This document shows positions 1,994-11,634 of a stretch of DNA of 13,344 bases, piece after piece. Position 1 is the first letter of the stretch. Each line of letters starts with the position of its first letter. Below the pieces are notes generated by a model. The model was not told where the DNA came from. It saw nothing but the letters and a program-made list of their open reading frames with translations, and did no database searches. The stretch lies in contig JAWXBZ010000121.1 of NCBI GenBank assembly GCA_034440375.1, positions 1-13,344 of the forward strand, in the 5' to 3' direction. The position numbers were made by a program, and so were the translations under genes. Source of the stretch: Candidatus Eiseniibacteriota bacterium (GTDB lineage Bacteria; Eisenbacteria; RBG-16-71-46; JABDJR01; JAWXBZ01).

Positions 1994-3136
1994 CTACCCC
2001 TTGAACAGCTCGCGCGCCATGATCATGCGCTGGATCTGGCTGGTGCCCTCGTAGATCTGGAAGACCTTGGCGTCGCGCATGAGCTTTTCGACCGGGTATT
2101 CCTTGCTGAAGCCGTAGCCGCCGAAAACCGGCACGGCATCGGTCGTCACCTTCATGGCTGTGTCGGCGGCGAAACACTTGGCGAAGGCGGCTTCCATCGT
2201 GTTCTTGTGGCCGTTGTCGATCAGCCAGGCGGCGTGCCGGACGAGATGACGGGCGGCGGCCACCTCCTTGGCCATGTCGGCGATCATGAAGGCGATGGCC
2301 TGGTGCTGTGCAATCGGTTTGCCGAACGTCTTTCGCTCCTGGGCGTAACGGACTGCATGTTCCATGGCTTCACGGGCCACGCCGACGGCTCCGGCGGCCA
2401 CCGGAGGCCGCGTGTGGTCGAAGGCGCTCATGGCGATCGGCCAGCCGGCACCCTCCGGTCCGATCCGGTTGGCGACGGGTATTCGCACCTCCTGAAAGGT
2501 GACGCCCCGCGTGTCCGAGGCTCGCTGCCCCATGTTGTCTTCCTTCTTGCCGATCCCCACTCCTTCCAGGTCCGCCGGGACGACGAACCCGCTCATCCCC
2601 TGGTACCGCGCGGCCGGATCGGTGTAGGCGAGGACGAAGAACCAGGAGGCGCGGCCGGCGCCGGTGATCCACATCTTGTTGCCGGTGATGACATACTCAT
2701 CCCCATGCCGGACGGCTCGCGTCTTGATACCGGAGACATCACTCCCGGCATCGGGCTCGGTGACCGCGTACGAGGCCAGCCGAAACTCGGTCGTCATGGG
2801 CGTGAGCCACTGCTTCTTCTGTTCGTCGCTGGCGGCGTGGATCAGCGGTGCCTCGGCCAGGACGTTGGCCTCGATGGCCGTATAGATGCCGCTGCAGGCT
2901 GCCGAGAGCTCCTCGGCGATCAGGCAACCGTCCAGGCTGGTGAGGTCGAGCCCGCCAAAGGCTTCCGGAATGTGGATGTTCATGAGACCCAGTTCCCAGG
3001 CCTGCCGGCATATCTCGATCGGGAATTCACCGGACTGATCGTGTGTGCGTGCCTGTGGCGCCACGACATCGCGGGCAAACTCACGGGCCAGGTCGCGGAG
3101 CTGTTTTTGATCGTCGGAGAGGGAAAAGTCAATCAC
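1994..3136 (-). CDS. Acyl-CoA dehydrogenase, medium-chain (MCAD)-like
   Basis: Motifs YAVTEPDAGSDV, GNKMWITG, GKKEDNMGQRASDTRG, ERKTFGKPI, GGYGFSKEYPVEKLMRDAK and IYEGTSQIQR (catalytic Glu). Start moved to the GTG at 3136 (VIDFSLSDDQ), which follows an AAGAGG RBS; 380 aa. Confidence 0.95.
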   Translation of the reverse strand: MIDFSLSDDQKQLRDLAREFARDVVAPQARTHDQSGEFPIEICRQAWELGLMNIHIPEAFGGLDLTSLDGCLIAEELSAACSGIYTAIEANVLAEAPLIHAASDEQKKQWLTPMTTEFRLASYAVTEPDAGSDVSGIKTRAVRHGDEYVITGNKMWITGAGRASWFFVLAYTDPAARYQGMSGFVVPADLEGVGIGKKEDNMGQRASDTRGVTFQEVRIPVANRIGPEGAGWPIAMSAFDHTRPPVAAGAVGVAREAMEHAVRYAQERKTFGKPIAQHQAIAFMIADMAKEVAAARHLVRHAAWLIDNGHKNTMEAAFAKCFAADTAMKVTTDAVPVFGGYGFSKEYPVEKLMRDAKVFQIYEGTSQIQRMIMARELFKG

Positions 3137-3261
3137 GGTACCGTCCTCTTGGGTCCAGATCCGGGCGTTTGAAGTTGTCGGATGGCGTTGCCCCGCCGCG
3201 ACAGGTCTGGCGCGTCGGCGCTTCAGCCTCCGGGGGCCAGCCATGCCGACCACCAGTGCTC

Positions 3262-3290
3262 ATCATACATCTCGCCCGCAACACATTGAA
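3262..3290 (-). promoter_or_regulatory. Candidate sigma70 promoter for the acyl-CoA dehydrogenase
   Basis: Minus strand reads TTCAAT-N17-TATGAT in the AT-richer divergent intergenic region. Confidence 0.35.
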
Positions 3291-3327
3291 CCACAAAGCT
3301 TTGAGATTAATCGCGAGAATCATGAAT

Positions 3328-3344
3328 CAGGCATGGCCCCTGCA
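3328..3344 (+). promoter_or_regulatory. Candidate sigma54 (-24/-12) promoter
   Basis: CAGGCATGGCCCCTGCA has GG at 3330-3331, exactly 10 nt of spacer, then GC at 3342-3343 (consensus TGGCACG-N4-TTGCW). An AT-rich tract lies just upstream (about 3280-3325). Confidence 0.45.
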
Positions 3345-3426
3345 GTGTGTAGCCGTGGATCCACCGGCCGGCCCGGGGAAAGTCCCGGCGGGTCGATCGG
3401 TTATTGGAGAAAGGAGGAGTTGGGAC

Positions 3427-3876
3427 ATGTCAACAACCTCTCTGCGGGGGGTGGCCTTCGGCCTCGCCCTGGTACTGGCGACTGCATCTCTATCGCCAGC
3501 CATCGCGGAGGCGGGGAATCGACGGAACAAACACCACCGCAATAACGGAAGGAGCCACCATCGAGTCGTGGAACGGCGTGACCATCATGATCGTGATTAT
3601 GATCGTTATCGTAATCGTTCGCAGTGCAACTCGAATGTTGGGACCTTCCTCGGTGGCGTTGCCGTCGGGGCTATCATCGGCCATCACACCGATCGGTATC
3701 CACCCCCGCCGCCCCCGCCGCGTCGCGCCTGGACCTACGATTGCGACCCGTGTGGCTACCACAATCAGAGCTATGACTCATGGGTCGTGCATCTGACGGT
3801 GGTGCACGAGGTTCCCAGATGTGACATCGCGGCAAGCTACCCACCCAACTACTGTGGTCACTGGGAGGATTACTGA
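3427..3876 (+). CDS. Secreted hypothetical protein: His/Arg/Asp-rich region, glycine-zipper-like segment, poly-Pro linker, C2H2-like motif
   Basis: ATG at 3427 follows a strong AAGGAGG RBS. Signal peptide MSTTSLRGVAFGLALVLATASLSPAIAEA; FLGGVAVGAIIG; PPPPPPP; CDPC-x12-H-x4-H. 149 aa; the ORF-track start at 3043 is too far upstream. Confidence 0.75.
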   Translation: MSTTSLRGVAFGLALVLATASLSPAIAEAGNRRNKHHRNNGRSHHRVVERRDHHDRDYDRYRNRSQCNSNVGTFLGGVAVGAIIGHHTDRYPPPPPPPRRAWTYDCDPCGYHNQSYDSWVVHLTVVHEVPRCDIAASYPPNYCGHWEDY

Positions 3877-3970: not shown

Positions 3971-4828
3971 ATGAGCCCCTCACTCGCTGCCCCCCTTCGC
4001 CGCCGATATTGGATTCCCTGGTGCGCGGCCCTTGCCCTCTCGATCGTTCCACTTTCATTGACGCCGGACGATTTCAAGACATCTGCCGTCGCGTCGGAGC
4101 CCTCGGCCCCCCGCATCACCGCCGGGGCCCGGCCCATCCTCGATGCTCTGTACGGTTCGATGGGGGGGCGCGGCACGTTCGACAGTCTACCCACTCTCCG
4201 TTTCACTTTTACCTATGTCAGCCGCGATACGATCCGCACGAGCCGGACCCATTGGTGGGATCGGCGGGATGGCCGATATCGGATCCAGGGAACGAATCGC
4301 GCCGGCCAACCGTTCGTTGTCCTTTTCAACGTCCAGACACAGCTCGGTGAGGCCTGGCTTGACGGGAAGCTGCTCGCCGGCGAGGAGCGTGCCGCTCTGC
4401 TGACGCGGGCGTACGGCCTCTTCATCAACGATACCTACTGGTTCCTGATGCCATTCAAGCTGGACGACGACGGGGTAAACGTGGCCCGGGATGGCGAGGT
4501 CGTTGTGAACGGCTTGCCCTGCGACCGACTCAAGGTGACGTTCGATTCAGTCGGATTGACCCCGAACGACACCTACTGGGCCTATCTCGACAGGGCCACT
4601 CACCGGATGGTTCGCTGGGGTTTCATCCTGCAGGACGAAGCTGGTCCGGCCGCCAGGGAATCACTCTGGGACTGGGTTGCCTGGCAACCGGTCGGGCCGC
4701 TGGTACTATCGTCGGATCGCGTCAAGGTCAACGACCCCGAACGCAGCATCATTCGCCTGATCAATCTGGAAGCGGGTGCTGCCTGGCCCGATTCCTTTTT
4801 CACCAATCCTGCGCCGCTTCCGTTCTGA
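3971..4828 (+). CDS. Exported hypothetical protein, probably DUF6503-like
   Basis: N-terminal signal-like segment (RRRYWIPWCAALALSIVPLSL). Motifs LYGSMGG...FDSL..LRFTF, FINDTYWFLMPFKLDDDGV and LKVTF..VGLTP.DTYWAY recall the DUF6503 family (recognised from memory). Confidence 0.7.
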   Translation: MSPSLAAPLRRRYWIPWCAALALSIVPLSLTPDDFKTSAVASEPSAPRITAGARPILDALYGSMGGRGTFDSLPTLRFTFTYVSRDTIRTSRTHWWDRRDGRYRIQGTNRAGQPFVVLFNVQTQLGEAWLDGKLLAGEERAALLTRAYGLFINDTYWFLMPFKLDDDGVNVARDGEVVVNGLPCDRLKVTFDSVGLTPNDTYWAYLDRATHRMVRWGFILQDEAGPAARESLWDWVAWQPVGPLVLSSDRVKVNDPERSIIRLINLEAGAAWPDSFFTNPAPLPF

Positions 4829-4894: not shown

Positions 4895-5311
4895 ATGGAA
4901 TGGAACCGCTCCGGCCCCGGCGCCGAATCCTCACCGACGGTGCCGCCGATTCACATCGACGAACTCCGCGAGATCATTCGCGACTCAATCGACGAAGCCC
5001 TCGGGCTGTCCGACATCCGGTTGTCGCCGCGCTGGCAGGCCGGCACTCTTGTCCTGAAGCCGGGCGACCCCTCACTGAAGGACAAGGAGATACCGCTCGA
5101 GGCGTTTTTTCACAAGATCGTGATGCTTCGCGACCGACTTCGAGTTCTTGAGCAGAAGGTCAACGCACACAAGGTGCTGACGGACGCCGACAAGGTGGAG
5201 ATGCAGCAGTACGTGACCAAGATTTACGGCACGCTGACATCCTTCAACATCCTCTTCCGCGACAAAGGCGACCAGTTCGTCGGTGAGCGGGGTGGCCGGG
5301 ACGACGACTAG
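4895..5311 (+). CDS. Conserved hypothetical cytoplasmic protein
   Basis: AAGGAG RBS and GC3-biased codons. The core W..GTLVLKPGD..L..KEIP.E.FFHKIVM.RDRLRV.EQ..N...QQY.T..YG.LT.FN.LF resembles a widespread uncharacterised family. The stop codon abuts the rnr start. Confidence 0.8.
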   Translation: MEWNRSGPGAESSPTVPPIHIDELREIIRDSIDEALGLSDIRLSPRWQAGTLVLKPGDPSLKDKEIPLEAFFHKIVMLRDRLRVLEQKVNAHKVLTDADKVEMQQYVTKIYGTLTSFNILFRDKGDQFVGERGGRDDD

Positions 5312-7708
5312 GTGCCGCTGCCGACCCGGGCTGAACTGATCCGCCATCTCGAAGAGCAGGCCTCACACCCGGAAAAGCCCAAGGAAATGGCCCGGGCCCT
5401 TGGTGTGAAACCACACGAGTATCACGCCTTCAAGGAGATGCTCCGGGAGCTGGAAGACTCGGGGGAAGTGTACCGAGTCCGCAAGGGGCGCTACGGCCCC
5501 CCCGACCGGCTCAACATGGTCGTTGGGATTCTCCGTGTCGTGAAGAGCGGCCACGGCTATGTGATACCGGAGGCGGGCGGCGATGAAGTTTTCATCCATG
5601 CCGGCGCGATGAACACCGCACTCCACAGCGACAAAGTGGTCGTTCGAATCGAGCGAATGCGCCGACGCTCCGGCATCGGCCGGCCCGGCACACCGGGCGG
5701 TGCCGAAGGGGCCGTGATCAAGGTCCTGGAGCGGGCTCGAAGCGAGATCGTCGGGACGGCCAACGTTGGCCGATCTCATGTCGTCGTCTCGCCGGATGAC
5801 CCGCGGATCGCCCGCGACGTGATCGTGCCTCTTGATCAATCCCTCGGCGCCAAGGACCGGCAAAAAGTTCTGGTCGAGGTCCTTTCATGGGGAACGCCGC
5901 ATTCAGGGCCGGTCGGACGCATCACCGAAGTCCTGGGCTCCCCGGGCGACCCCGGCCTCGACATCCTGACGATCATCAAGCATCACGGTCTGCCGGACCG
6001 CTTTCCGGCCGAAGTCGAGGCGGCGGCGGAAGCACTGCCCCACGCCATTTCCGAGGCGGAGATCGCCCGGCGCGAGGATTTTCGCGACCGTTTCGTCGTG
6101 ACGATCGATCCGGTCGATGCCAGGGACTTCGACGACGCGTTGTCGCTCCGGCGGATCGACGACGCAACGTGGGAGCTGGGAGTCCACATCGCCGACGTCA
6201 GCCACTACGTCAAGGCCGGCGAGGCGATCGATCTTGAAGCCTATCGCCGGGCCACGTCGGTTTACCTTGTCGACCGGGTCATACCGATGCTGCCCGAAAG
6301 ACTGTCCAACGACTTGTGCAGCCTGAAGCCGCAGATCGACCGACTGGCCATGAGCGTCGTCATGACGGTCGATGACGGGTGTCAGGTCATCAAGGCCCGC
6401 GTGGCCGACACGGTGATCCACAGCCGCCACCGGCTGACTTATCAAAAAGTGCAGTCGATTTTCGAAGGCGATGCCCTGCTGCGTCAGCAATATGCCGATG
6501 CGCTCGAGTTGCTTGATAATCTCCGCCGGCTGGCAAAGAAGCTGACCGCTCGCCGCGGACTGCGGGGGAGCCTGGATTTCGATCTGCCGGAAAGCCGGGT
6601 CATCCTGGACAAGGATGGATTTCCGATGGACATCCAGCGGGTGGCCCGGCTGGAGAGCCACCGATTGATCGAGGAGTTCATGGTGCTGGCCAACGAGGTG
6701 GTGGCCAAGGACCTCCGAAAGCGGAAAATCGCCGGTCTCTTCCGGGTCCACGAGCCGCCCGACCCGCTGCGGATCGAACAGATGCTTGAAGTCATCACAC
6801 CTCTCGGTCACCGGTTGAAGCGGAGCAAGGATGGCGAGGTCGTGCCGTCCGCCCTGCAAGAGCTGTTGAAACGGGCCGAGGGACGGCCGGAGGAGAATCT
6901 CATCAACACGCTCGTCCTGCGAAGCATGAAGAGGGCCCGTTACGACCCGAGGCCGCTCGGCCACTACGGGCTTGCCAGTACCGATTACCTTCACTTCACC
7001 TCGCCGATCCGGCGCTATCCGGACCTGGTCGTTCACCGGGCCCTGCGCGAGGCTGCCGGGGTCGAGCCGGCAACGTTCTTGCGCCGGGAAGAGTGGGAAT
7101 CGCGACTCGGCCAGGTGGCCGTGCACTGTTCCGCGCGGGAGCAGGTGGCCGAGGAAGCCGAGCGCGACTCGGTGGAGGTGAAGAAGGCCGAGTTCATGCT
7201 GAGGCACCTTGGCGAGGAGTTCACCGGCACGATCAGCGGCGTCACCTCCTTCGGGCTTTTCGTTTCGCTGACCGACTATGCGGTCGAAGGGTTGATTCAT
7301 GTCAGCAACCTGGGCGACGACTACTACATCTTCCGCGAGGATTTGTATGCGCTGGTCGGCGAATCGACCAAGCGGATGTTCCGCCTGGGCGACGGGGTCA
7401 CGGTGCAGGTGATCGCCGTGAAGAAGGAGCTCCGGCAGATCGACTTCGGCCTGGTGGCCAAGGTGGGGGAAAAGGTGCCGACCGGCCCTCGAAGCCTTTC
7501 GGCGCCACCCCGGCCCCCTCGCGCCGGCGTGAAACCTCGAACCTCGACCGCGAAGGTCGGAAAGTCGGCCGGCCGCTCCCGGGCGGCTAAGGGCGAGGCG
7601 CGAGCACGAAGTACCACCCCGACGCCAGCCAGTGGGGGAGGCGGTCCACGAGGCGGCAGTCGGCGCGGGCCAGCCATGAAATCCGGCGGCCGCCGGGGAA
7701 AAAAGTGA
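5312..7708 (+). CDS. rnr: Ribonuclease R
   Basis: N-terminal HTH-like region, cold-shock domains (GHGYVIPE...VFI), RNB catalytic motif TIDPVDARDFDDALS, SHRLIEEFMVLANE, HFTSPIRRYPDLVVHR, S1 domain (GEEFTGTISGVTSFGLFV) and a Lys/Arg-rich C-terminal tail typical of RNase R. Confidence 0.96.
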   Translation: MPLPTRAELIRHLEEQASHPEKPKEMARALGVKPHEYHAFKEMLRELEDSGEVYRVRKGRYGPPDRLNMVVGILRVVKSGHGYVIPEAGGDEVFIHAGAMNTALHSDKVVVRIERMRRRSGIGRPGTPGGAEGAVIKVLERARSEIVGTANVGRSHVVVSPDDPRIARDVIVPLDQSLGAKDRQKVLVEVLSWGTPHSGPVGRITEVLGSPGDPGLDILTIIKHHGLPDRFPAEVEAAAEALPHAISEAEIARREDFRDRFVVTIDPVDARDFDDALSLRRIDDATWELGVHIADVSHYVKAGEAIDLEAYRRATSVYLVDRVIPMLPERLSNDLCSLKPQIDRLAMSVVMTVDDGCQVIKARVADTVIHSRHRLTYQKVQSIFEGDALLRQQYADALELLDNLRRLAKKLTARRGLRGSLDFDLPESRVILDKDGFPMDIQRVARLESHRLIEEFMVLANEVVAKDLRKRKIAGLFRVHEPPDPLRIEQMLEVITPLGHRLKRSKDGEVVPSALQELLKRAEGRPEENLINTLVLRSMKRARYDPRPLGHYGLASTDYLHFTSPIRRYPDLVVHRALREAAGVEPATFLRREEWESRLGQVAVHCSAREQVAEEAERDSVEVKKAEFMLRHLGEEFTGTISGVTSFGLFVSLTDYAVEGLIHVSNLGDDYYIFREDLYALVGESTKRMFRLGDGVTVQVIAVKKELRQIDFGLVAKVGEKVPTGPRSLSAPPRPPRAGVKPRTSTAKVGKSAGRSRAAKGEARARSTTPTPASGGGGPRGGSRRGPAMKSGGRRGKK

Positions 7709-8387
7709 GCGGGCCATCGGAGTGTTGCCGGCGCCGGATGTCATAGCCGGCCCGCCGGCACATCGTTTCGAACCGTTTCAGGGTGAAGTGCTGCAGATGT
7801 GGTGATTCGAAGTTGAACGTCGAGGTCTCGGCGTCCCTTTCCTCCCGGCGGACTCCCAGCACCTTCTTCACGGGTTGGTAAATACCGGTCTTCCGCGCCA
7901 GCCATCCGGCCGCCCGCCGGGGTGACAGCGCCTGGCCGATCTCCCACGGTCCCTGCCCGTTGGGAATGGTGACCAGGACCAGCCCGCGGGATGTCAGGGC
8001 CCCGCGAAATGCGGCCAGCGCCGCCGCGGGATCGTCCACATGCTCAAGGACCTCCGAGGCAATGATGGCGTCGAAACGCCGCCCGGCCGGCAGCTCGGTC
8101 AGTCCGGCCTGTTCAAGCTGCAGGGTCGACGGCAAGTCTTGTAGTCGCATGAATTCGAGCGACGCCGCATCGATGTCGGTGGCCAGCACCCGGTGGCCCA
8201 GCCAGGCCAGCGGCCGCGAGATGTTGCCGCTTCCGCACCCCACCTCCAGGATATCGAGAGGCAAGGGGCCGATCGCCGAAAGCGCACTGATCAGAAATCG
8301 CAGCTTCTTCAGATCGACGGGGTCACGGTAGCGCGTCTGGCCAAGCCAGGCGTCCGGGGGCGGCACCCGGGGCGCCGGCGGTGTCAT
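7587..8387 (-). CDS. Class I SAM-dependent methyltransferase
   Basis: Motif I ILEVGCGSG, then VLATDID, FDAIIASEVLEHV and GLVLVTIPN. The start overlaps the thiE stop (ATGA). Confidence 0.88.
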   Translation of the reverse strand: MTPPAPRVPPPDAWLGQTRYRDPVDLKKLRFLISALSAIGPLPLDILEVGCGSGNISRPLAWLGHRVLATDIDAASLEFMRLQDLPSTLQLEQAGLTELPAGRRFDAIIASEVLEHVDDPAAALAAFRGALTSRGLVLVTIPNGQGPWEIGQALSPRRAAGWLARKTGIYQPVKKVLGVRREERDAETSTFNFESPHLQHFTLKRFETMCRRAGYDIRRRQHSDGPLTFFPGGRRISWLARADCRLVDRLPHWLASGWYFVLAPRP

Positions 8388-9031
8388 GCTGGGTCACCCA
8401 TCGCTGTTATCAGCCCGCGGGCGGCGACGCCCGGGTCGTCGGCGCCCAGTATGGCCCCGATGACGGCCACGCCGGCGGGTGCTCGTCCGGCTCCGGGAGG
8501 TGGTGACATCAACAGCCGGCTCCGCTCGGCGTTGATTCCGCCGAGGGCATAGACGGGAATCGCCACCGCTGCTGCGATCGACCAGAGCGCCTCCGAACCG
8601 AGCGGGACCGCGCCGGATGTGACCGCCTTTGACCATGGCGTAAAGATCGGCGCCAGCAGCACGAAGTCGGCGCCGGAAAGGGTTGCCCCCTCGGCCTCGG
8701 CGGCTGAATGGGCCGAGTAACCAACACGGCATTCAGGTGGAAGAAGACGTCGTGCCTCACGGATCGGCAGCGAGGCCGCCCCGAGCTGCACGCCGTGGGC
8801 CCGGAGTGACAGCGCGAGGTCGATCCGGTCGTTAATGTAGAAGCTGGCTCCGTGACGGCGTGTGAGTGCCGAGAGTTCGCGGCCAAGCTGGTAAAGGTCG
8901 GCGCCGGAAAGATTCTTGTCACGGAGCTGCACGGCGTCCACGCCGCCGGCCAGCGCCGCCTCCACGGCCTCGAGGAGAGCCATCCGGGTGGTGGCCCGGT
9001 CCGTGATCAACAGGAGACGGAACGGCGTCAG
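8384..9031 (-). CDS. thiE: Thiamine-phosphate synthase (ThiE/TenI family)
   Basis: [43 protein letters not shown]...[18 protein letters not shown]. The start is uncertain; a CTG at 9031 overlapping the thiG stop gives 215 aa. Confidence 0.85.
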
Positions 9032-9795
9032 CGGCCGACAATCCCTTCGATGGGGCTGGAGGCGGTGGCGTGGAGCTTCATCGGGATCCGCCCGGCAAGG
9101 AAGGCCAGGCGGCCCGATTCCACCGCCAGCTTCATGGCCCGGGCCATCATCACCGGATCCCCGGCCCCGGCGATGGCGCTGTTCATCAGTACCCCGTCGC
9201 AACCGAGTTCCATCGCCAGCGAGGCGTCAGAGGCCGTGCCGACACCGGCATCCACGATAACCGGCACCCCGCACGTTTCCCGAATGATCCGAAGACTGTA
9301 GGGATTGCGGATGCCAAGCCCGGAGCCGATCGGCGCACCGAGCGGCATCACCGCCGGGCAGCCCAGTTCGGCCAGTCGTTTGCACAGGACCGGATCGTCG
9401 TGCGTGTAGGGGAGAACCGTGAATCCGTCCTTGATGAGGGCTGCCGTCGCCTCGAGCAGAGCCGGCCCGTCGGGATAAAGCGTTTGTTCGTCCCCGATCA
9501 CTTCGAGCTTGACCAGCGCGGTGCCGAGCGCCTCCCGGCCAAGTTGCGCGGTGAGAATGGCGTCCTTCGCCGTGTAGCAACCGGCGGTGTTCGGCAAAAG
9601 GCTCACGTTGAGCCGCTGGAGCGCGCCAAGGATCGAACCCTGGCCGCTGTCCGACAGATCAACACGGCGGATGGCCACGGTCACGAGGTCGGCGCCGGAC
9701 TCGCCGATGGCCGCCTCGAGCAGGTCGACCGATGGGTAGCGCCCGGTGCCAACGATGAGCCTCGATCGAAACTGGTACTCGCCGAATTGGAGCAT
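9028..9795 (-). CDS. thiG: Thiazole synthase
   Basis: [29 protein letters not shown] (Schiff-base Lys), [30 protein letters not shown]. Confidence 0.97.
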
Positions 9796-9800
9796 GCCCC

Positions 9801-10019
9801 TCAGCCGCCTCCCACGGCGCGGATGATTTCGACCCTGTCGCCGTCTGAAAGGACGAGAGTGCCGAGTTCGTTCTGTCGGACCACGATGTCGTTGACGGCC
9901 ACCGCGATGCCCGACCCTTCGAGGCCGAGGCGCGACAGGAGGTCGGCCGGCGTGGTGCCAGGGTCCACTATTTCCGCGGCGCCGTTCACCTGGATGCCAA
10001 TTCTCAATTCAAGGCTCAT
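9801..10019 (-). CDS. thiS: Sulfur carrier protein ThiS
   Basis: IQVNG...IAVAVN..VV....[15 protein letters not shown] with the C-terminal Gly-Gly, directly upstream of thiG. ATG at 10019; 72 aa. Confidence 0.93.
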
Positions 10020-10050
10020 CCGTGCATGGTAGCGCACTCGGCGGCGCGCC

Positions 10051-10086
10051 AAAAGCAAAACGGCGACCCCGAAGAGATCGCCGTTT
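10051..10086 (-). terminator. Intrinsic terminator downstream of the histone-like gene
   Basis: Minus strand: AAACGGCGATCTC-TTCG-GGGTCGCCGTTT followed by TGCTTTT. This is a GC-rich stem with a C(UUCG)G tetraloop and a U-rich tail, 36 nt after the stop at 10123. Confidence 0.8.
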
Positions 10087-10122
10087 CACAGTCCAGCGGC
10101 GCCCGGCGGGCACCGGTCGATC

Positions 10123-10323
10123 CTACAGATCGACGGGCTTGAGCGTCTTCCGCTTGTTGCCGATCGCGCGGGCTTCCGCGCCGGCGACCATCTCGCGCAC
10201 CTTCTTGTCGAGGGCACCGTAGAAATCGCTCGACACATTGCACTTCTTCGAGGCGGCCTTCGTGCGGCTCTTGGAGATGATCAGTTCCACGGGCTTCTTC
10301 GCCGACTTCTTGGCACCAGCCAT
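10123..10323 (-). CDS. Bacterial histone-fold protein (prokaryotic histone singlet) with a Lys-rich N-terminal tail
   Basis: 66 aa: MAGAKKSAKKPVELIISKSRTKAASKKCNVSSDFYGALDKKVREMVAGAEARAIGNKRKTLKPVDL. It shows alpha1 LIISKSRTK, L1 NVSSD, a long amphipathic alpha2, L2 RKTL and the R-x-T-x4-D clamp. AAGGAG RBS lies 8 nt before the ATG at 10323. Confidence 0.88.
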   Translation of the reverse strand: MAGAKKSAKKPVELIISKSRTKAASKKCNVSSDFYGALDKKVREMVAGAEARAIGNKRKTLKPVDL

Positions 10324-10417
10324 GTTATTCACTCCTTGCGTGTAGAGGTGGAGATGGGAGACGGCCCCCGCGGTCCCGCCGCAGCGTGGCCATGCTTCCG
10401 ACCCTTCAACGCCCGGG

Positions 10418-10445
10418 ACTATACCCGCGCGAAACTGCGTATCAA
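10418..10445 (-). promoter_or_regulatory. Sigma70-type promoter of the histone-like gene
   Basis: Minus strand TTGATA-N16-TATAGT; both hexamers match consensus at 5 of 6 positions in a GC-rich background. Confidence 0.65.
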
Positions 10446-10514
10446 AGCCCCCTTGCGCTGAAAAACCCATGTTTCCGCCCCGGCGTGCACATTTCATGAA
10501 TCGGTGGCCAGGGT

Positions 10515-10542
10515 TCAGGACCGCCGTCGGCCCGGCCGATAA
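10515..10542 (+). promoter_or_regulatory. Candidate sigma28-family promoter
   Basis: TCAGG-N15-GCCGATAA: a perfect FliA-type -10 element with a weaker -35, 75 nt upstream of the ATG at 10618. Confidence 0.35.
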
Positions 10543-10617
10543 CAAGGATCAAACCCCGTCTTGAATTGCTGACCGTCGGCCGACCAGGCCCAGGCCCTGC
10601 CACTTCCGAGGTGCACC

Positions 10618-11007
10618 ATGCCCAGACGCACTCTCCTTTCGATCGCCATCCTCCCCCTCCTCATGATCGGCTGCGGCTATCAAAAGACCTGGGTCGCCAG
10701 TGACCCGCTGCAGCTCACCGCCAAGCCCGGGGGCTACGACATGCCGGTATCCCGGGGGGGCACCAATCGGGCCCACAAGATCCTCGGCGACCTGTCCGTC
10801 ACGACCCGGATCAAGCCGAACTGGTCCACCGAAAGCAGCCACGACCTGGCGGTCAAGGATCTCCAGAAGGAGGCCATTCGCCGGGGCGCCGATGCGATCA
10901 TCGATTTGAGGACATCCGAGCGGGACAAGGATGGGCATACCCGGCTGACCGTCTCCGGCCACCTGATTCTGTTCACCGGGCCGCCGCCGATCGCGGCCCG
11001 CGGTTGA
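10618..11007 (+). CDS. Small lipoprotein with a YbjQ-like (heavy-metal-binding-like) domain
   Basis: GAGG RBS and lipoprotein signal MPRRTLLSIAILPLLMIG-C. Motif HKILGDLSV...AVKDLQKEAIRRGADAIIDLR...VSGHLI is typical of the YbjQ-like 'A..LGADAII' fold. Confidence 0.72.
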   Translation: MPRRTLLSIAILPLLMIGCGYQKTWVASDPLQLTAKPGGYDMPVSRGGTNRAHKILGDLSVTTRIKPNWSTESSHDLAVKDLQKEAIRRGADAIIDLRTSERDKDGHTRLTVSGHLILFTGPPPIAARG

Positions 11008-11085: not shown

Positions 11086-11634
11086 ATGACCCGCTCGCCT
11101 GCCGGCTCTTGGATACTTGTCCTGGGATTTGTCCTGGCCGGTCTGGCCGGCTGCGGAGCCGGAGGCCAGACGCCTCCCCCCGAAACCGGTGTTGTACCGG
11201 CCGGCCAGTCGTTGGAGACCTCGGGTGTCGAGGTCGAGATATTCACGTCGGCCGAGAGAATTCTCGTTCATGGCTTCCGCATCGATTTCCCGAAATTGCG
11301 AAACATAACCGAACTGATCGGTTTCGCTCCGGAGCAGTGGGATCGCATCGTCAGGATTCCGCTCGCCGATCTCCAGGAATTTCAGATTCGCGGCATCATC
11401 GATTCGGCGACGTTTGGCCGGATCTACGCCAACCGTGAACAGTTTTCCGTGGAGCCGGAGGAGTTTTTCAACGTCACGATTGTCGCGCTCGACGGCACCC
11501 GCAGCGATCTCGTGGCTATCCTGCCCCGATTTCGGGGCATCAGGGACGGCGTCGTATGGGAATTATCGATGCGCGGCAACCCCGCTCGCATTGACCGGGT
11601 CATCGTTCGCCACTCTGAACAGGGGAGGCATTGA
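11086..11634 (+). CDS. Hypothetical lipoprotein
   Basis: GGAGGAGG RBS, hydrophobic signal ending in a canonical LAGC lipobox, Pro-rich linker, then a globular region I do not recognise. Confidence 0.72.
   Translation: MTRSPAGSWILVLGFVLAGLAGCGAGGQTPPPETGVVPAGQSLETSGVEVEIFTSAERILVHGFRIDFPKLRNITELIGFAPEQWDRIVRIPLADLQEFQIRGIIDSATFGRIYANREQFSVEPEEFFNVTIVALDGTRSDLVAILPRFRGIRDGVVWELSMRGNPARIDRVIVRHSEQGRH

Follow-up and report, generated by a model that had tools for sequence, protein, structure and literature searches.

A lysine-rich N-terminal tail on a predicted face-to-face histone of an Eisenbacteria bacterium

The window considered here is a whole contig of 13.3 kb (13,344 nucleotides), which forms part of a metagenome-assembled genome of 3.96 Mb that is 93.7% complete and has a GC content of 63.8%. 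Its minus strand harbors a short gene for a histone, which is preceded by possible expression signals and followed by thiS, thiG, and thiE. The features of interest are as follows.

10418 to 10445, minus strand: promoter-like (sigma-70-like) site, TTGATA, 16 nt, TATAGT, from a consensus scan only
10332 to 10337, minus strand: SD-like motif AAGGAG, 8 nt 5' of the ATG at 10321 to 10323
10123 to 10323, minus strand: histone gene, 66 codons plus a TAG stop at 10123 to 10125, from translation
10291 to 10323, minus strand: codons M1 to P11 (MAGAKKSAKKP), a basic N-terminal tail of net charge +4, predicted to be disordered
10288 to 10290, minus strand: GTG codon of Val12, an alternative start directly after the tail codons
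10126 to 10290, minus strand: histone fold, V12 to L66, from the AlphaFold2 model, alignments A1 and A2, Foldseek, and a profile search against the PDB
9801 to 10058, minus strand: thiS, after the histone gene on the same strand
9028 to 9795, minus strand: thiG, after thiS
8384 to 9202, minus strand: thiE, after thiG
7587 to 8387, minus strand: generic class I SAM methyltransferase, after thiE

The histone is encoded by a single copy in the 3.96-Mb assembly, since a search of the genome returned one full match and a second that is weak (E 0.7) and interrupted by a stop. ThiE is also found 3' of the histone gene in the closest syntenic relative (L006/L101). A terminator scan of positions 9900 to 10700 around the histone gene gave no terminator-like site, and an Rfam search across the full window returned neither a family at the gathering score nor a TPP riboswitch before thiS. 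The promoter-like site occurs once, against 0.2 expected from shuffles, and a leader running from it would measure about 85-90 nt. Among the remaining plus-strand reading frames of the window, those at 3043-3876, 3971-4828, 4895-5311, 10618-11007, and 11086-11634 have no Pfam or NCBIfam match; the frame at 10618-11007 is divergent from the histone gene and has an N-terminus that looks, by eye, like a lipoprotein signal.

On the minus strand, positions 10323 to 10291 read ATG GCT GGT GCC AAG AAG TCG GCG AAG AAG CCC. An earlier, sequence-only reading of this DNA had described a MAGAKKSAKKP stretch ahead of the fold, with two KK pairs, Ser7, and Pro11 at the junction, and this description is exact at 10291-10323. 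It had also raised the GTG of Val12 as a possible real start, in which case the Lys-rich stretch would be an untranslated leader. GTG is a legal start codon, and this one is a single codon upstream of the conserved E-L-I-I-S-K core of the fold. However, AAGGAG precedes the ATG, whereas inspection of the sequence upstream of the GTG found no SD-like motif. Comparison with related loci, all of them from metagenome-assembled genomes, points in the same direction. Eighty such genome loci were collected, from Eisenbacteria, Methylomirabilota, Latescibacterota/Krumholzibacteriia, Myxococcota ("Deltaproteobacteria"), and Planctomycetota, and the core motif was detected in 78 of them, L072 and L080 being missed. 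A start codon adjoins the basic tail in all 78 (71 ATG and 7 GTG), an SD-like motif stands before the tail start in 55, and an in-frame stop lies no more than 5 codons upstream of it in 15. In 64 of the 78 no further start codon falls between the tail start and the fold core, and only 14 have a start-type codon 0-3 codons ahead of the core, none of which has an SD-like motif. The histone loci of the same phylum combine an ATG with an SD-like motif in 13 of 13 cases. The frame of the tail is preserved, with length changing in multiples of three, and only 12 of the 22 same-length homologues among the 120 matches listed have Val at position 12, with A, L, T, or G in the others. Given these comparative start-codon data and the variability of position 12, initiation at Val12 is very unlikely, and the tail is very probably translated from the ATG.

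Public RNA data add sequence from relatives. In every RNA sequencing run, at most 4% of the words sampled from the stretch are present. Four RNA libraries from three studies yield contigs that match the histone gene at 85-99% likeness, and five contigs extend upstream past the ATG (records 1 and 2 of X17, record 7 of X18, and records 14 and 15 of X20), the longest of these reaching 10377 and 10393. Such contigs come from relatives and may reflect DNA carry-over; as they mark neither a transcript start nor the translation start, they are not counted as evidence here.

The identity of the protein as a bacterial histone, which the sequence-only reading had proposed, is upheld by its residue signature, profile comparison, Foldseek, and AlphaFold2, all of which place it as a histone fold. 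The AlphaFold2 model, made from a 139-sequence alignment, has a mean pLDDT of 78, with residues 1-10 below 50, and these tail residues are predicted to be intrinsically disordered. In the model, alpha1 spans residues 18-24 or thereabouts and alpha2 residues 32-55, and the L2 loop reads KRKT. Alpha3 is truncated, with only 11 residues after alpha2, in which DSSP gives no further helix of at least 4 residues; the alpha3-truncated class is characterized by a shortened alpha2 and an alpha3 of just 3-4 residues (Schwab et al. 2024). The protein contains the signature R52-x3-N56-x-R58-x-T60-x4-D65, which is of the face-to-face (FtF) type. In the histone D4GZE0 the residues of the FtF (dimer-dimer) interface and of L2 are given as R41, N45, R47, T49, and D54 by Schwab et al. 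(PMC11390915). R52 and N56 stand 6 and 2 residues before R58, a spacing identical to that of R41 and N45 in D4GZE0, and the L2 motif R-x-T-x4-D is present as R58-K59-T60-L61-K62-P63-V64-D65. These residues are also well conserved: R52 and N56 are invariant in alignment A1 (28 sequences), while in A2 (139 sequences) R52, T60, and D65 are invariant and N56 and R58 are each kept in at least 90%.

Searches against known structures agree with this signature. Profile comparison with the PDB gives E-values of 3.6e-14 for HTkC, 8.3e-13 for HLp, 3.8e-07 for HBb, 1.4e-03 for HmvA, and 0.41 for HMfA, and the sequence is thereby nearer the solved FtF histones than other classes. Foldseek returns HTkC (9F2C) and HLp (9QT0/9QT1) at the top of its PDB matches, with 32% identity, a TM-score of up to 0.82, and an rmsd of 1.8 A, at E-values that are all above 0.001, as is expected with 56 aligned residues. 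The best structural matches, HTkC, HLp, and HBb, are all alpha3-truncated. An HBb-like "bacterial dimer" does not fit, since histones of that kind lack the interface Arg and Asn, which are present here as R52 and N56. Family databases were less informative: hmmscan of the 66-aa protein against Pfam-A (E<=1) gave only a chance match to Secretin_N_2, with neither PF00808 (CBFD_NFYB_HMF) nor PF09123 (DUF1931), and an NCBIfam scan gave no match. The source records of some database homologues nonetheless carry the names "DUF1931 domain-containing" or "histone H3/H4". On the grounds of the signature spacing, the conservation of R52 and N56, and the Ser and Asp that HBb has at these positions, we classify it among the alpha3-truncated histones as face-to-face (HLp/HTkC-like), an assignment made from sequence and model, with a putative tetramer.

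The closest characterized counterpart is HLp of Leptospira perolatii (PDB 9QT0-9QT2; PMC12701072). It is the best single-sequence PDB match of the window protein (E 0.0067) and is of similar size, at 63 against 66 amino acids. Both proteins have the truncated alpha3 and the R-x3-N-x-R-x-T-x4-D signature, and the folds match at 32% identity with a TM-score of 0.81-0.82 and an rmsd of 1.8 A. HLp has been shown to form tetramers and to wrap DNA, whereas the window protein was modelled as a monomer. HLp touches the DNA backbone through A13, S14, and K15, where alpha1 begins, through K17 and K21 within alpha1, and through loops L1 and L2, and in the structures with DNA its first six residues are disordered (PMC12701072). 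The N-terminal nine-residue stretch of HLp, MAQNAEKDT, is non-basic, where the window protein carries +4. HLp is therefore uninformative on basic tails, as its own N-terminal stretch is both non-basic and disordered in the crystals.

Two other histones of known structure differ at the N-terminus. HTkC, an archaeal FtF histone from Thermococcus kodakarensis (PDB 9F2C), is the top match in both the profile and the Foldseek searches and shares the Arg equivalent to R52, but it has a Glu at the position of N56 and begins at the fold, without a tail. HBb (Bd0055) of Bdellovibrio bacteriovorus (PDB 8FVX, 8CMP, 9EZZ) likewise has an alpha3-truncated fold with an RKT loop and is 19-21% identical to the window protein in Foldseek. 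HBb starts about 1-2 residues ahead of the fold, and the earlier statement that it begins near the fold is accurate, residue 2 of the HBb chain aligning to profile position 8-10. Removal of the four N-terminal residues from HBb is described as leaving its behavior unchanged in a FRET wrapping assay (PMC10627809).

Basic tails in this group of histones have already been noted. The sequence-only reading had treated such a tail as unusual among prokaryotic histones, a view that does not hold for the bacterial FtF subfamily, in which it is reported as the rule. The tails of bacterial FtF histones are reported to be common and mostly positively charged, have no conserved sequence, and are named "H3-like positively charged tails" (Schwab et al. 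2024, PMC11390915). The positively charged tail is a feature that these histones have in common with the window protein, and the lineages in which they are described overlap those of the related loci in Planctomycetota and Myxococcota (PMC11390915). Basic charged tails of bacterial FtF histones are thus already in print, and the present gene is a clean example of one and not a new kind of chromatin.

Tails of comparable character are known from other DNA-packaging proteins. Streptomyces HupS and mycobacterial HupB, which are abundant non-histone nucleoid proteins that package DNA, have disordered tails in which KK doublets are spaced by A, S, T, or P; these tails add DNA affinity and are acetylated in vivo (PMC11229371). 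The HupS/HupB tail is C-terminal, measures about 145 residues, and is attached to an HU fold, whereas that of the window protein is N-terminal, which makes the likeness one of analogy and not homology. The Asgard histones HLoB and HMpB and the eukaryotic core histones have N-terminal, disordered tails with more than 30% Lys, according to a preprint (bioRxiv 10.64898/2026.07.02.735847). Those tails, of 16-64 aa, are found on nucleosomal histones with a full alpha3 and have demonstrated writers and erasers, in contrast to the window protein, with its 11-aa tail and truncated alpha3, for which dedicated enzymes were not found. Literature searches turned up neither an experiment on the tail of any bacterial histone nor a report that such a tail is modified.

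The lysine content of the tail is out of keeping with the genome that encodes it. Across the 2284 long ORFs of this genome, Lys makes up 2.4% of residues and Arg 8.7%, and under that composition the occurrence of four Lys among the ten residues that follow Met has a binomial probability of 6.6e-05, on the basis of which chance composition is rejected. Homologues were collected by a word-indexed search that returned 2005 at E<=1e-3, and the tail counts were made on 120 listed matches, query included, the tail being taken from the last Met up to the residue preceding the conserved L of E-L-I-I-S-K. Among these 120 listed homologues, the stretch before the fold contains at least two K+R in 119, at least three in 103, and at least four in 73, with a median of 4. 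The stretch is 7-28 residues long, with a median of 13 (the query also has 13 by the same count), and consists of 31% K and 27% A; those of the listed close homologues with basic tails span several phyla. The tails of the 78 related loci are 32% K and 6% R, and K+R reach 38% in them as against 16% in the equal-length in-frame stretch upstream of the start. These 78-locus K+R figures are partly circular, because the rule that placed the tail start demanded at least two K/R within the next 7 residues, whereas the count on the 120 homologues is not.

At the level of individual residues, the 22 same-length tails among the 120 matches listed have Ala2 without exception (22/22) and a basic residue at positions 5, 6, and 10 in 21, 18, and 17 cases, respectively. 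Pro11 is retained in 15 of them and is otherwise S or T, while Ser7 is retained in 2. In the wider family, sampled as 118 representatives at 50% identity, the tail ranges from 0 to about 45 residues. At one extreme are 56-aa proteins that begin MAD-M/L-IISK, such as P0149 and P0189, and at the other are tails with around 45 residues of AKK-type repeats (P0146, P0148). The existence of tail-less relatives indicates, from sequence comparison, that the tail is dispensable for the fold. Since basic charge is kept while sequence and length both drift across the family, it is the charge that is under selection, and not the sequence or the length. The idea that the tail might be conserved within its clade is hence right with respect to charge, which is present in 119 of the 120 listed homologues, and wrong with respect to sequence and length.

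Small changes in the tail are also seen close to the window. One RNA-library contig of a relative has a 3-nt insertion at 10293/10294 (AGC on the plus strand); it separates codon K10 from codon P11, is in-frame, and makes the tail one residue longer. The near-identical database protein P0003 also has one additional tail residue, reading KKSSPKKP. The SPKK-type motif is a minor-groove motif; it was considered as a feature of the tail and set aside, as it is present in only 1 of the 120 listed homologues, namely P0003, and the window protein has SAKK.

We consider it likely, with a probability of about three in four, that the tail is a translated, disordered Lys/Ala-rich arm on an FtF-type histone and raises its non-specific affinity for DNA. 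Residues 1-11 would act as a flexible cationic arm leaving the N-terminal end of alpha1, a position corresponding to the part of HLp that touches the DNA backbone. The alpha1 region of the window protein has basic residues of its own (K18, R20, K22, K26, and K27), and basic residues on alpha1 sit where HLp contacts DNA. The arm would add four positive charges per chain, or 16 per tetramer if an HLp-like tetramer forms, and could through additional non-specific phosphate contacts and charge neutralization increase DNA affinity. It might also touch a second duplex or a neighboring particle, with some effect on compaction. The contribution of the tail may be small, as it carries only +4 of the net +11 of the protein, and its removal would shift the calculated pI from 10.25 to 10.01. 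The effect on DNA binding may likewise be modest. Measured effects are on record for the analogous lysine-repeat domains of HupS and HupB, and acetylation of that of HupS lowers DNA affinity about 2-fold (PMC11229371).

The sequence-only reading had suggested that the tail could increase DNA binding, a role that fits its conserved charge and predicted disorder, and also that it could be acetylated, methylated, or phosphorylated. In its full form the latter idea makes the tail a regulated modification platform on which reversible acetylation or methylation of Lys, or phosphorylation of Ser7, would tune the chromatin. The preference of the tails for Lys over Arg (32% vs 6%), in a genome whose proteome favors Arg (8.7% vs 2.4%), would suit such a role, as Lys can be acetylated and Arg cannot, but the same preference is typical also of unmodified H1-like DNA-binding tails. 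The invariant Ala2 of the same-length tails has been counted in its favor as well; with Ala at this position, the initiator Met should be cleaved off and Ala left exposed at the N-terminus. There is some precedent too, as the tails of eukaryotic and Asgard histones and the lysine-repeat domains of actinobacterial HupS and HupB are modified in this way. KK doublets near Ser or Thr have been proposed as acetyl-phosphate targets in HupS (PMC11229371), and a HAT acetylates the Lys-rich tails of Asgard histones, for which SIR2 proteins are the proposed erasers (bioRxiv 10.64898/2026.07.02.735847). What the locus and genome offer by way of enzymes is sparse, however. The genome, at 93.7% completeness, gave no match to SET or SIR2, and its one gene of the Hist_deacetyl family, which could be taken as support, lies on another contig (C129), unlinked to the histone, and belongs to a family so widespread that it is found in 9 of 14 control genomes. 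Two genes of the HU/IHF family are also present in the genome. Flanking ORFs were picked at the 49 related loci with full flanks, and of the 97 picked, 4 were dropped on account of a size limit; the 93 scanned include one GNAT, at L029, and no SET, deacetylase, or sirtuin, the others being varied housekeeping genes such as those for an amidase, DUF6178, IMPDH, dCTP deaminase, and PBP1. A role in histone methylation was weighed for the nearby class I methyltransferase (7587-8387) and rejected, as the enzyme is generic and all its NCBIfam matches are far below the cut-offs (the best, UbiG, scores 49.8 bits against 103). In the syntenic L006, neither of the next two downstream ORFs was seen to be a methyltransferase; the first of them, ThiE, was the one scanned with Pfam. 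Taken with the absence of Ser7 from most same-length tails, and with conservation that beyond basic charge is not position-specific, these findings leave a disordered basic extension lacking linked writers or erasers, and we regard the modification platform as unlikely. A narrower form of the idea, in which the tail Lys are reversibly acetylated, enzymatically or by acetyl-phosphate, and the sole deacetylase-family enzyme acts as eraser, is comparably doubtful. If true, it would mean that the bacterium adjusts histone-DNA affinity to its metabolic state and that bacteria have an independently evolved counterpart of histone-tail regulation.

Another alternative is that the tail has no selected function, being a tolerated low-complexity 5' expansion of a highly expressed gene or a feature of translation or of the mRNA. 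This would account for the lack of a conserved tail sequence, for a length that varies from nothing to about 45 residues, and for the existence of forms that are tail-less (P0149) or non-basic (L113). Lys/Ala-rich stretches are found, moreover, on unrelated proteins of the same genome, ribosomal proteins and a prolyl oligopeptidase among them. Against it stand the persistence of positive charge across several phyla and the bias toward basic residues at positions 5, 6, and 10 in the near-clade tails. The AAG-rich codons also run counter to a genomic GC content of 63.8%, and these tails contain Lys at about 13-fold the level of the proteome. We accordingly hold a tail without function to be improbable, and a translated basic arm that adds DNA affinity remains our preferred reading.

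The distribution of the histone within its own phylum is patchy, which is of specialist interest, as is the preference of the tails for Lys rather than Arg, which goes against the GC bias of the genome. The histone was found in 14 of 121 sampled genomes, that of the window (G000) included, and in every one of the 8 other genomes sampled from the window's order (families f1 and f2), whereas it was not found in the 45 genomes of family f3 or the 26 of f5 in this sample. The other histone copies of the phylum have basic tails in 12 of 13 cases. The thirteenth, L113 (G096:C1:2100696-2103860), has an N-terminal extension that is non-basic, and its sequence is MTEITDKIAAGE. It provides a natural comparator for tail function, and the tail-less variants of the wider family could serve in the same capacity.

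Bacterial histones have been recognized only recently. The present gene opens no new question, as the existence and the charge of such tails are published and no dedicated modification system is indicated. It is nonetheless well suited to a comparison of full-length and tail-deleted protein, since its start codon is clear, it is present once in the genome, its clade is conserved, and its tail is short.

Finally, GyrB of this genome (C8:9877-13386, L114) measures 650 aa, in an open frame of 661 aa, and lacks a Lys-rich extension at its N-terminus. A crude scan of the genome for Lys-rich stretches found 47 ORFs in which a run of 20 residues includes at least 6 K, and 15 of these ORFs were scanned with Pfam. 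Lys/Ala-rich low-complexity stretches are located at the N-termini of topoisomerase I and Lon protease, at the C-termini of the prolyl oligopeptidase and of three ribosomal proteins (L22, L17, and S12), and in two proteins without a Pfam match, one of which has PARKAAKP-type repeats. The Lys/Ala-rich ORFs are C103:8059-10575, C193:9275-12031, C17:3274-3810, C17:15823-16452, C222:2855-3280, C209:16323-18584, C205:5097-5909, and C209:2598-2990.
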